64,000 nt of DNA, from the NCBI GenBank assembly GCA_034520945.1, contig JAXHNB010000005.1:448001-512000 (forward strand), in the 5' to 3' direction. The notes below the pieces were generated by a model. That model ran no database searches. It was given only the letters and a program-made list of their open reading frames with translations, and had not been told where the DNA came from. The position numbers were made by a program, and so were the translations under genes. Below, in pieces: positions 34,617 through 38,242 of the stretch. The DNA comes from Trueperaceae bacterium. Lineage in GTDB: Bacteria; Deinococcota; Deinococci; Deinococcales; Trueperaceae. Position 1 is the first letter of the stretch. Each line of letters opens with the position of its first letter.

Positions 34617-36686
34617 ATGGCTACTTCCACCACGATCGACCTACGCTGGGTACGCAACATCGGGATCGCTGCGCACATCGATGCCGGCAAGACCACGTTG
34701 ACGGAGCGGATCCTGTTCTACGCCGGCCGCATCCACAAGATGGGCGAGACGCACGAGGGCGGCTCGCAGATGGACTGGATGGAGCAGGAGAAGGAGCGCG
34801 GCATCACCATCACCTCGGCTGTGACGCAGTGCGCCTGGAACGACCACCGCATCAACATCATCGACACCCCGGGCCACGTCGACTTCACGATCGAGGTCGA
34901 GCGCTCGATGCGCGTGTTGGATGCTGCGGTGGCTGTGTTCGACGCTTCGCAGGGGGTCGAGCCGCAGTCGGAGACGGTCTGGCGCCAGGCCGACCGGTAC
35001 CACGTGCCGCGGCTGGCGTTCGCCAACAAGATGGACAAGACCGGGGCCGACTTCCAGTTGGTGCTCGACTCGATGGACGAGCGCCTGGGGGCCAACGCGG
35101 TGCCGATCCAGTGGCCGATGGGGGCGGAGGACAAGTTCCTCGGCGTGATCGACCTGGTCGAGATGAAGGCGTACACCTTCATGGACGACATGGGCAAGGA
35201 CATCCGCATCTCCGACGTTCCCGAGGAGTACGCCGAGACGGCCAAGGCGAAGCGCAACCTGATGGTCGAGCGGCTGGCCGACGTGGACGACGAGGTGGCG
35301 ATGGCGTACCTCGAGGGCGAGGAGGTCGACGTCGACACCGTGAAGAACGCCATCCGGAAGGGCGTCATCGCGCTCGAGGTGTTTCCCGTGATGTGCGGCT
35401 CCGCGCTCAAGAACAAGGGCGTGCAGCGCGTCCTGGACGCGGTGACCTACTACCTGCCCAGCCCGTTGGACGTCCCGCCGATTCACGGCCTGCTGCCCGA
35501 CGGCAGCGAGGAGAGCCGGCCGGCCGACCGGGACGCGCCGACCGCGGCGCTGGCGTTCAAGATCGCGACCGACCCCTACGTGGGGCGCCTCACCTTCGTC
35601 CGGGTGTACTCGGGCGTGCTGGAGGCGGGCTCGTACGTGTACAACGTGTCGAAGGGCAAGCGCGAGCGCATCGGGCGCCTGCTGAAGATGCACGCCAACA
35701 GCCGTGAGGAGGTCGACCGCATCGAGGCGGGCGATCTCGGCGCCGTGATCGGGCTGAAGGACACCACCACCGGCGATACCTTGGCCGATCCCGACCACAT
35801 GATCGAGCTGGAGTCGATCGAGATCCCCGAGCCCGTGATCACGGTCGCGATCGAGCCGGTGTCGAAGGCGGACCAGGACAAGCTGAGCAACGGCATCGCC
35901 AAGCTGGCGGAGGAGGATCCGACCTTCCGCGTCGAGACCGACCCCGAAACCGCCCAGACCAAGATCTCGGGCATGGGCGAGTTGCACCTCGACATCATCG
36001 TCGACCGCCTGCGGCGGGAGTTCAAGGTGGCCGCCAACGTCGGCGCGCCGCAGGTCGCCTACCGCGAGACCATCACGCGGCCCGTGGACGTGGAGGGCAA
36101 GTTCGTCCGGCAGACCGGCGGGCGTGGGCAGTACGGTCACGTCAAGATCAAGGCGGCGCCGCGCGACCGCGGCGAGGGGTTCGAGTTCGAGAACGCCGTC
36201 GTGGGCGGGACCATCCCCAAGGACTACATTCCCGCGGTGCAGAAGGGCGTCGAGGAGGCCATGCAGAACGGGCCGCTCCTCGGCTTCCCGATCGTGGACG
36301 TGAAGGTGACGCTGTACGAGGGCTCCTACCACGAGGTGGACAGCTCCGAGATGGCGTTCAAGATCGCCGCGTCGATGGCCATTCGGAACGTGATGGCCCA
36401 GGGCGGCGCCGTCCTCCTCGAACCCGTGATGCGGGTCGAGGTCGTCACGCCCGAACAGCACATGGGCGATGTGATCGGCAATCTGAACTCGCGCCGCGGC
36501 CAGATCCAAGGCATGGAGCCGCGCGGCAAGTACCAGGTCGTCACCGCGCACGTTCCGCTGGCCGAGATGTTCGGCTACGCGACCGACCTTCGCAGCCTGA
36601 CGCAGGGCCGCGCCACCTTCACGATGTTCCTCGATCACTACGCGGAAGTGCCGAAGAGCATCCAGGAACAACTCACCAAGAAGTAA
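34617..36686 (+). CDS. fusA: Elongation factor G
   Basis: [44 protein letters not shown]. Confidence 0.99.
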
Positions 36687-36700
36687 GGAGCTGAGGAGTC

Positions 36701-37918
36701 ATGGCGAAAGCGACGTTTGAGCGTTCGAAGCCGCATGTGAATGTGGGGACGATTGGGCATGTGGATCATGGGAAGACGACGTTGACGGCTGCGATTACGT
36801 TTGCGGCTGCGGCGGCGGATCCGTCTGCTGAGACGATGTCGTATGAGCAGATCGATAAGGCGCCGGAGGAGAAGGCGCGGGGGATTACGATTAATACGGC
36901 GCATGTGGAGTATCAGACGGGGGCGCGTCATTATTCGCATGTGGATTGTCCGGGGCATGCGGATTATGTGAAGAACATGATTACGGGGGCGGCGCAGATG
37001 GATGGTGCGGTGTTGGTGGTGTCGGCGGCGGATGGGCCGATGCCGCAGACGCGTGAGCATATTTTGTTGGCGCGTCAGGTGGGGGTGCCGTATGTGGTGG
37101 TGTTTTTGAACAAGGTGGACATGGTGGATGATGAGGAGTTGTTGGAGTTGGTGGAGATGGAGGTGCGGGAGCTTTTGTCGAGTTATGAGTTTCCCGGCGA
37201 TGATGTGCCGGTGGTGTCGGGGTCGGCGTTGAAGGCGTTGGAGGCGTTGGTGGCGAATCCGAATGTGCAGCGGGGTGAGGATTCGTGGGTGGATCAGGTT
37301 TGGTCGTTGATGGATGCGTTGGATGGGTATGTGCCGACGCCTGAGCGTGATGTGGATAAGCCGTTTTTGATGCCTGTGGAGGATGTGTTCACGATTACGG
37401 GTCGTGGGACGGTGGCGACGGGTCGTGTTGAGCGGGGTGTGGTGAAGACGGGGGATGAGGTCGAGATCGTGGGGTTGTCGGCGACGCGGAAGTCTGTGGT
37501 GACGGGTGTGGAGATGCATCGGAAGACGCTTCAGTCGGGGATGGCTGGGGATAATGTGGGGGTTTTGTTGCGGGGGGTTGCGCGTGATGAGGTGGCGCGG
37601 GGTCAGGTGTTGGCGAAGCCTGGGTCGATTACGCCGCATACGAAGTTTCGGGGGTCGGTGTATGTGTTGCGGAAGGATGAGGGGGGTCGGCATAGTGCGT
37701 TTTTTGCGGGGTATCGGCCTCAGTTTTACTTTCGTACGACGGATGTGACGGGGGTGTGTACGTTGCCGGGGGATGTGGAGATGGTGATGCCGGGGGATAA
37801 TGTGGAGTTGTCGGTGTCGTTGATTAAGCCGATTGCGATGGAGGAGGGGTTGCGGTTTGCGATTCGTGAGGGGGGTCGTACGGTGGGTGCGGGTGTCGTG
37901 ACGGGGATCGAGGAGTAA
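36701..37918 (+). CDS. tuf: Elongation factor Tu (extreme G/T-ending codon usage)
   Basis: [54 protein letters not shown]. Confidence 0.99.
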
Positions 37919-37921
37919 GCC

Positions 37922-38242
37922 GTGGCGACCCCGAAGATTCGCATCAAACTGAAGGCGTTCGACCACCGCAGCCTCGACAGCTCCGCCACCCGGATCGTCG
38001 ACACCGTTCGCCGCACCGGCGCCGACGTGGCGGGACCGGTGCCGCTGCCGACGCGTGTGCGCCGGTTCTGCGTCCTTCGTAGTCCGTTCACGGACAAGGA
38101 CAGCCGCGAGCACTTCGAGATCCGTACCCACAACCGGTTGATCGACATCAAGTCGCCCACCAAGGGCACGATCGACAGCCTCATGCACCTCGACCTCCCG
38201 ACAGGGGTGGACATCGAGATCAAGACGGTCGGAGGCCGCTAG
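37922..38242 (+). CDS. rpsJ: 30S ribosomal protein S10
   Basis: [25 protein letters not shown]. Confidence 0.98.

Follow-up and report, generated by a model that had tools for sequence, protein, structure and literature searches.

Strand-specific synonymous depletion of C and A in the duplicated tuf genes, and more mildly in a duplicated recA core, of a Trueperaceae bacterium

Genes for the elongation factor EF-Tu (tuf) are a textbook case of translationally selected codons, serve as a standard reference for 'optimal' codons and are used as a phylogenetic marker. Concerted evolution of tufA and tufB by gene conversion, for which Salmonella and E. coli are the model, has been described in six phyla including Deinococcus-Thermus, so that concerted tuf evolution in this phylum is already established (PMC6053082; PMC5485169); in the accessible parts of these papers, it is the identity of the copies that is described. 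The subject here is a tuf gene in a window of 64,000 nt (G000:C5:448001-512000) of a Trueperaceae genome, a metagenome-type assembly of 3.47 Mb in 10 contigs with an estimated contamination of 5.13% (G000). Its two copies resemble the described systems in occupying the two classical contexts, in being nearly identical over the coding sequence (CDS) only and in sharing a within-genome identity above that between genomes; unlike in those systems, a strand-specific purge of synonymous C and A was observed. The pattern is a real, inherited, gene-specific recoding of a duplicated gene, and the main new result is that the skew extends to the duplicated core of recA and varies in step with that of tuf. 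No published description or explanation of a G/T-ending tuf pattern was found in the full-text literature, subscription journals being largely uncovered.

The third positions of the 406 tuf codons (stop included) were A 2, C 12, G 277 and T 115, which bears out the hand count in an earlier note on this DNA (about 12 codons ending in C and one in A), the two A-ending codons being AAA at codon 3 and the TAA stop. Leucine was encoded by TTG 24 times and by CTT twice, never by CTG or CTC, as that note had also read. K3, the fraction of codons with third-position G or T (G3+T3), was 0.968 for tuf versus a mean of 0.468 (sd 0.062) among 2221 open reading frames (ORFs) of at least 150 aa passing a simple coding filter, a distance of about 8 sd; the next-ranked ORF reached 0.769, and the many skewed single-copy genes for which a genome-wide scan had been proposed were not seen, none being like tuf. 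A six-frame search for ORFs of 70 aa or more gave 16,624, of which four combined C3 below 0.12 with A3 below 0.08: both tuf copies, plus two short ORFs (99 and 81 aa) that probably do not represent genes. The GC content of tuf was 58.9% versus about 72% in the window and 71% in the genome, its GC3 was about 0.71 versus a usual level of about 0.89, and its keto fraction was 0.69 versus 0.51 genome-wide.

Three genes on the same strand, fusA, rpsJ and the next gene downstream, served as controls. The normal, C-rich codon usage claimed for fusA and rpsJ was confirmed (Table 1), and C3 was 102 of 208 in the gene after rpsJ. In two-fold pyrimidine boxes, T:C was 66:5 in tuf versus 11:177 in the three neighbors (log-odds 5.36, Fisher p 1.6e-43), and the Gly codon GGC occurred once versus 62 times. 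Four-fold boxes of tuf held G 181, T 36, C 4 and A 0, with a T share uneven among boxes (p 6.6e-5) and peaking in Gly and Arg, where the neighbors most favor C; some tRNA-level selection thus remains in tuf. The gene therefore opposes its own operon neighbors and, as the earlier note held, the C-ending preference of highly expressed genes, and the codons that translational selection would have it share with ribosomal protein and elongation factor genes are the opposite of those it uses. The per-site force (log-odds about 5) lies above typical codon selection.

The skew was bounded at the CDS ends, as had been noticed. C minus G, counted on the non-template strand in 78-nt windows, fell across the start codon, from -1 (position 36620) to -21 (36680), and rose across the stop codon, from -15 (37880) to +16 (37940). 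Over its 1218 nt, tuf had no window with C>G (maximum -9), a property found in 6 of the 2221 ORFs; fusA and rpsJ contain such windows.

A second tuf copy, expected by the earlier note to be near-identical and equally skewed, was found outside the window, 191 kb away on the same strand (copy B). It is as skewed as copy A, and the copies are 99.67% identical in DNA and encode identical proteins. Identity begins 3 nt ahead of the ATG and ends 3 nt beyond the stop, the four mismatches (CDS positions 492, 495, 498 and 666) all being third positions, and the skew ends with the identity, no more than 3 nt from the CDS end in all four cases. Whereas copy A stands in the order fusA-tuf-rpsJ, copy B follows genes for tRNA-Thr(TGT), Tyr(GTA), Gly(CCC) and Thr(GGT), and its 117-nt untranslated leader is unskewed (C 45, G 37). 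With this leader and with fusA and rpsJ normal, replication strand and operon transcription are not the cause, in agreement with the earlier argument. Identity to same-genus genomes was 86-90%, full tuf copies differed at 0-4 positions in each of eight genomes, and nearly all well-assembled genomes in the phylum sample had two tuf matches. Thus, the two copies evolve in concert.

The recA gene is likewise duplicated. The two recA copies share a 975-bp core, their N- and C-terminal parts being unrelated. Third positions of the core were C 78, G 211, T 32 and A 4, versus C:G of 11:9 and 15:17 in the unshared C-terminal CDS tails, which are unskewed. K3 was 0.65-0.71 over the called ORFs and 0.75 in the core; the skew sets in some 7 codons from the start of the core and peters out some 25 codons short of its end. 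Ranked next behind tuf in G/T skew were a group II intron reverse transcriptase (RT) gene, type I restriction island genes, insertion sequence (IS) elements and the two recA genes. Mobile or imported DNA aside, the extreme K3 tail of the 2221 ORFs contained no cellular genes but the tuf and recA pairs. All seven recA matches in six other genomes of the genus had K3 of 0.68-0.82, those of other families 0.32-0.56. Homogenized cores were also present in G005 (984 bp, 98.6%), G013 (972 bp, 100%), G159 (1014 bp, 98.9%) and G107 (994 bp, 99.2%), showing that the homogenized recA core is old and family-wide.

Among same-genus genomes (G001, G003, G004 and G005), tuf C3 was 0.8-6.4%. In other genera of the family, the complete, single-contig genome G159 had a tuf K3 of 0.985, with copies 99.9% identical and a recA core of C3 0.11, G3 0.67 and T3 0.22, and is thus an independent replicate of both the tuf and the recA case; G157 reached 0.946, and C3 was as low as 0.8-1.5% in G003, G001 and G159. 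Intermediate tuf skew was observed in G018, G015, G080, G107 and G012 of the same family, and ordinary values in its lower-GC genera (G013, G017, G079, G166 and G169). Tuf C3 ranged from 16% to 71% in other genera of the order, being 0.16-0.21 in genera g12 and g14 together and 0.16-0.19 in g12, whose genomes measure 2.1-2.5 Mb. Tuf K3 and recA K3 rose together (Spearman 0.79 over 16 related genomes, 0.86 within the family), these rank correlations being descriptive as the genomes compared share ancestry. This coupled behavior makes the question of cause testable, whichever explanation holds.

The shift also reaches the protein sequence. K1+K2 of tuf rose with its K3 (rho 1.0, nine genomes), whereas K1+K2 of fusA was unrelated to tuf K3 (rho -0.08) and fusA K3 stayed at 0.36-0.53. 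When Leu, Arg and Ser were left out, K1 and K2 of tuf still tracked K3 (rho 0.88 and 0.82, 15 related genomes). The amino-acid-changing positions lose A (I>V, T>A, N>D, S>G), not C. GC content and thermophily may contribute to this shift, but only in part, judging by the fusA control.

Table 1. Location of the tuf and recA copies, control genes and other features mentioned in the text. Positions marked w are those of the window; the others are contig coordinates, C5, C2 and similar labels denoting contigs of G000 unless another genome is named.
Feature	Location	Strand	Composition or basis
tuf copy A (EF-Tu, 405 aa), skewed CDS	w 36701..37918	+	third positions, K3, C-G windows
tuf copy A/B identity tract, 1224 bp, 4 mismatches	w 36698..37921	+	ungapped flank alignment; self-BLAST 484698-485921 versus 293237-294460
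tuf copy B	C5:293240-294457	+	
recA, first copy	C6:599146-600498	-	
recA, second copy	C2:418150-419628	+	
recA shared core	C6:599212-600186; C2:418546-419520		99.28% identical
fusA, upstream co-oriented neighbor, unskewed control	w 34617..36686	+	C3 344, G3 310, T3 26, A3 10 of 690
rpsJ, unskewed control, begins 3 nt past tuf stop	w 37922..38242	+	C3 59 of 107
516-aa antisense ORF spanning tuf	w 36638..38188	-	ORF list
Rho, 594 aa	C6:924921-926702		
Group II intron RT and maturase ORF	C5:835810-837240		K3 0.769, T3 0.26
Group II intron RNA, following the RT ORF	L031:2265-2346		Rfam RF00029 match
Truncated RT fragment	C5:576316-576945		
COX4-like/cytochrome c fusion gene	C2:316278-317820	-	three tandem 543-bp units, 99% identical
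Type I restriction-modification islands	C5:20062-27717; C6:959450-968142		one G3-rich (K3 0.64-0.73), the other C3/A3-rich (K3 0.18-0.32)
Large duplications (6-25 kb)	C1:274916-315488; C2:47290-81254; C10:2862-28492 versus C5:869904-895528; C3 versus C2:154478-160149		98.7-99.5% identical, two in tandem
Second tuf of G005 (L030)	G005:C13:518418-519632		98.7% identical to its paralog

A possible explanation, tentatively preferred here, is that the skew represents a slow, strand-asymmetric synonymous rewriting of paralog segments that are homogenized by gene conversion. A narrower form is more doubtful, namely an undescribed strand-specific biased gene conversion in prokaryotes, whereby alleles richer in G and T on one strand, usually the non-template strand, would be preferentially transmitted in concerted paralog segments, perhaps by way of RecA-family filaments that perform best on TGG-like DNA; over time every free codon position would be rewritten, to a degree set by a lineage-specific factor. 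The segments affected would be the whole tuf CDS and the conserved recA core, G being favored on the non-template strand and T where G is not synonymous. Concerted evolution of the two copies, as observed, would be the first step, followed by a per-site conversion bias toward variants that enrich the sense strand in G and T. In this second step, the displaced or invading sense strand may be the recombination substrate, RecA-type filaments being most stable on TGG/GTG/GGT-like and least on CCA-like DNA; alternatively, the sense strand may take conversion-associated damage. With the protein held by purifying selection, the sites left to move would be the synonymous ones and those of a few conservative A-to-G replacements, which is where change was found. 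Genomic GC pressure would then pick G over T in four-fold boxes, where G does prevail, and residual tRNA-level selection would retain T in Gly and Arg. A lineage-specific factor may set the strength of the process, because from genome to genome the skews of tuf and recA change in step.

In favor of this conversion-linked rewriting, the skewed cellular genes are those evolving in concert, the skew of recA lies within the shared core, and the shift leaks into the amino-acid-changing positions of tuf, not into the adjacent fusA. The per-site force is very strong (the log-odds given above and C3 down to about 1%), and a drive acting site by site would fit it better than would a diffuse property of the transcript. 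The proposed process resembles GC-biased gene conversion in being a per-site, recombination-tied drive that mimics selection and could override codon preference; GC-biased gene conversion, however, raises G and C on both strands, whereas here G and T are up, C is down and GC3 falls from about 0.89 to 0.71. With regard to RecA, TGG repeats give the most stable filaments and CCA repeats the least stable ones according to the accessible parts of Kim et al. 2013 (PMC3763553), where this is an in-vitro property of E. coli RecA. The tuf sense strand has the highest TGG/GTG/GGT density of the 2221 ORFs (0.135) and nearly the lowest CCA/CAC/ACC density (0.001), its complement being CCA-like, as a RecA/Rad51 preference for GT-rich, Chi-like DNA would have it. 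Such a preference was reportedly described by Tracy and Kowalczykowski (1996/1997). In the available parts of the literature, no link between the GT preference of RecA and paralog codon usage was found.

A number of observations weigh against the conversion-linked reading. The TGG richness of tuf is explained by base composition alone (z -0.5 versus shuffles of its own codons). For tuf, for recA and for the group II RT gene, it is always the sense strand that is rich in G and T, which also fits selection on RNA. Polarized copy differences were few and mixed, 3/3 toward C in G000, and C>T 3, G>T 3, T>G 2, G>C 2 and A>T 1 in G005. A process limited by conversion should reach the edges of homology least, so the absence of any weakening there in tuf, with no C3 in the first 45 codons, counts against it. 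In G018, whose copies are 99.8% identical over the whole CDS, the purge is limited to the 3' 45%, and identity tract and skew tract thus differ.

Homogenized copies with no skew were also found. In G013, tuf copies with 0 differences and a 100% identical recA core had K3 of 0.43 and 0.49; in the complete genome G107, a recA core with 99.2% identity had C3 of 0.64 and tuf was mildly skewed; genus g11 had near-identical tuf copies with no skew (C3 0.71), as did G020 and G027; and in genus g10, tuf K3 was ordinary (0.30-0.55) in 16 of 16 sampled genomes, the copies being compared in G027 only. Indeed, most sampled genomes with homogenized tuf copies showed no C purge, indicating that duplication and homogenization alone are not sufficient for the skew. 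Within G000, an SBF transporter pair 97.7% identical had K3 of 0.55 and near-identical 17-25-kb duplications had a keto fraction of about 0.5, although both may simply be young. The suggestion of the earlier note that the process is confined to repeated sequence gains support from the duplicated recA core, which is skewed as well; in G013, G107, g11 and G027, homogenized copies lack the skew. A conversion-linked drive, if it were at work, would add a new evolutionary force to those acting on bacterial paralogs. It would put at risk codon-adaptation indices, composition-based detection of horizontal gene transfer and tuf- or recA-based trees, and would offer a handle on strand choice in recombination.

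The strongest alternative, itself rather unlikely, is selection on the transcript, by which tuf and recA mRNAs would be kept C-poor and G-rich so as to offer no Rho loading site and to fold less in a genome of 71% GC, the antisense RNA being an ideal Rho substrate. What likelihood these two explanations leave falls to the minor rivals treated below and to causes not thought of. Besides the orientation toward the sense strand, this alternative accords with the replacement of C by T in boxes read by the same tRNA (66:5 versus 11:177), which indicates a pressure on the nucleotide and not on the tRNA, and with the lack of C>G windows in tuf. Of 32 bubble-free regions studied in vitro by Nadiras et al. 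2018 (PMC6144790), 28 gave no Rho termination, and termination was anticorrelated with G-rich motifs; tuf resembles such Rho-refractory regions in having no 78-nt window with C>G, the published sequence criterion, and is rich in G, GG, TGG and GGT. Rho is encoded in G000, and a search of 31 genomes detected it in 30. Predicted folding of tuf was -35.5 kcal/mol per 120 nt versus -46.0±1.3 for genome-typical recodings, about 10 weaker, its YC dinucleotides numbered 64 versus about 150, and the recA skew weakens on the 3' side, as would fit a site no longer able to bring about premature termination.

Against transcript selection, the skew spares fusA and rpsJ, which lie in the same operon, as well as other highly expressed genes, and the untranslated leader of copy B is itself C>G. 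The concept of Rho-refractory regions, as set out in the accessible parts of PMC6144790, covers regions of E. coli and Salmonella and not a gene recoded to 3% C3; a whole transcript free of C>G windows was not found here, the copy B leader and the operon neighbors being unprotected. A purge to 1% C3 exceeds the need of a window-based property, and no optimization of arrangement beyond composition was detected in comparison with own-codon shuffles (folding z -1.6; YC 64 versus 62.2±2.2); likewise, tuf contained no G-quadruplex motifs, and its G-runs were no different from those of the shuffles. The purge of G018 in the 3' and not the 5' part, and the loss of A and not C at amino-acid-changing positions, are further difficulties. 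Rho architecture showed no relation to skew across genomes, the charged N-terminal extension occurring in unskewed G013 and G017 and a Rho of canonical length in moderately skewed G024 and G025, and was rejected as a determinant. If transcript selection were true, avoidance of Rho or of RNA structure could dominate codon choice in high-GC genomes. As an observation on Rho itself, the protein of G000 is extended at its N-terminus by about 170 highly charged residues with RGRPRK-like motifs; matches to this extension, which marks the whole family, were confined to family f1, Rho being about 420-450 aa in other families of the order.

Quite unlikely is a deamination of the non-template strand associated with transcription or R-loops, with no role for the second copy. 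A G-rich non-template strand would favor R-loops, and the non-template strand of tuf is enriched in T at two-fold sites and depleted of A; as in known strand asymmetries of mutation (leading-strand G+T, transcription-associated C>T), there is an excess of G+T on the non-template and presumably leading strand. Unlike in those, the keto fraction departs as far as 0.69 versus 0.51, the effect is limited to the CDS, and G replaces C in four-fold boxes. The change of C to T wherever synonymous, expected of single-stranded DNA deamination, was found in two-fold boxes (66:5) and failed in four-fold ones (G 181, T 36, C 4), and the deamination signature of C>T plus A>G on one strand, which the earlier note had recognized here, thus did not hold. 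Nor does the skew extend regardless of coding limits, since it stops at four CDS boundaries though leader, fusA and rpsJ are co-transcribed. RNase HI and UDG were each present in 5/5 genomes, skewed and unskewed alike, and were set aside as determinants. Repeat-induced point mutation of fungi differs as well, being an inactivating C>T change on both strands, whereas here one strand is affected and both copies encode the same intact protein.

Codon-biased translation, in which G- and U-ending codons would tie tuf and recA to particular wobble-modified or C34 tRNAs and tune their translation to cellular states, is very unlikely. The concept was reportedly described in mycobacteria by Chionh et al. 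2016. It would agree with an effect limited to codons and to particular genes, with C34 tRNA genes being present for most of the G-ending codons in use, and with the uneven four-fold T share, highest in Gly and Arg. However, T and C in two-fold boxes are read by one tRNA and still stand at 66:5, ribosomal protein genes and fusA use the opposite codons, and first positions (TTG 24, CTG 0) are shifted too, as are amino-acid-changing sites. Tgt, in 5/5 genomes tested whether skewed or not, was likewise rejected as a determinant.

Highly improbable is a rewriting templated by RNA or cDNA, in which reverse transcripts of the abundant tuf mRNA, made for instance by a group II intron RT, would recombine with the gene and bring in C>U and A>I changes. 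G000 does have a group II intron, whose RT gene has the second-highest K3 of the genome. On the other hand, the maturase domain was found in 7/46 family genomes and not in the complete genome G159 despite its tuf K3 of 0.985, the leader and the co-transcribed genes are unskewed, and four-fold boxes hold G and not T. The group II RT route is thus largely refuted, other RT classes lying outside the search, and the RNA/cDNA-templated repair raised in the earlier note does not require a group II intron RT.

Foreign origin or artefact can hardly be upheld, whether the CDS was transferred horizontally, the assembly chimeric or the bin contaminated: the low GC of tuf and the contamination estimate would speak for it, whereas both copies lie in their expected contexts and the evidence on junctions and kinship is as follows. 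The fusA-tuf junction was bridged by contigs X5 record 18 and X6 record 26, and the tuf-rpsJ junction by contig X3 record 15, three other studies in all, which answers the concern about a chimeric assembly expressed in the earlier note. In run X1, possibly from the source sample, contigs end 17-27 nt inside tuf and the loose end reads into the copy B flank, as expected for a true repeat. EF-Tu protein identity falls with kinship, from 92% in the same genus to 85-89% in the same family and 79-84% in the same order, and same-genus genomes share the skew; the view that tuf is native and not a simple horizontal transfer was borne out. Among tuf loci of other phyla, 80 of which were sampled arbitrarily, K3 did not exceed 0.755, so no donor was visible among them; eight of the 80 showed a mild form, with C3/(C3+G3) below 0.35, one of the eight being in an AT-rich genome. 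Foreign affinity, mobility genes and atypical neighbors, as expected of a horizontally acquired island, were absent, the neighbors being native operon genes.

Seemingly unusual tuf copies in three genomes were considered and set aside. G001 gave one match, but its contig C12 (L107) opens with the last 80 nt or so of tuf followed by rpsJ, and its full tuf (L009, G001:C1) stands in a hybrid fusA-tuf-rpmG context, in which fusA-tuf is joined to the terminator and rpmG of the other locus; there are thus two copies, collapsed or mis-joined, a mis-join across the repeat being likely and a caution for copy counts in draft genomes. The second tuf of G005 is frame-shifted over CDS 778-981, with three in-frame stops, and then compensated; as a 'pseudogene' it is uninformative, the break being too recent or an assembly or consensus error. 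A third copy in G015, on a 1193-nt contig, lacks the N-terminal insertion of the lineage and is probably bin contamination.

On the strand opposite tuf, a 516-aa ORF was predicted. Its frame pairs the first base of each codon with the third base of a tuf codon, and since tuf is free of A3 inside, T-starting and hence stop codons do not arise; from the sequence, this ORF would be a by-product of tuf composition and was not taken as a gene. GC skew was weakly positive on the + strand across contigs C5, C2 and C6, the cumulative curve climbing end to end; with no turning point on any of these three large contigs, it was uninformative as a marker of replication direction.

Among other repeats of G000, three ftsH paralogs, mutually 70-73% identical, had an ordinary K3 of 0.40-0.48, which counts in favor of the conversion-linked reading, and the remaining dispersed repeats were mostly transposase genes with no consistent skew. 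The large duplications listed in Table 1 may represent uncollapsed strain variation or assembly redundancy. Each tandem unit of the COX4-like/cytochrome c fusion gene comprises an acidic linker and a cytochrome c domain, with a frame change between units 1 and 2 that is either real or an assembly error. Third positions of the cytochrome c domain were C 74, G 9, A 12 and T 1 of 96 codons, giving an extremely C/A-rich coding strand, the mirror image of tuf. As a mirror case the repeat is suggestive; as a case of an affected antisense strand it was rejected, the unrepeated part being already C3-rich (113 C and 50 G of 184) and the contrast one of degree only. The two type I restriction-modification islands have opposite third-position biases, and IS21, IS110 and DUF1670 genes crowd the region around the truncated RT fragment.

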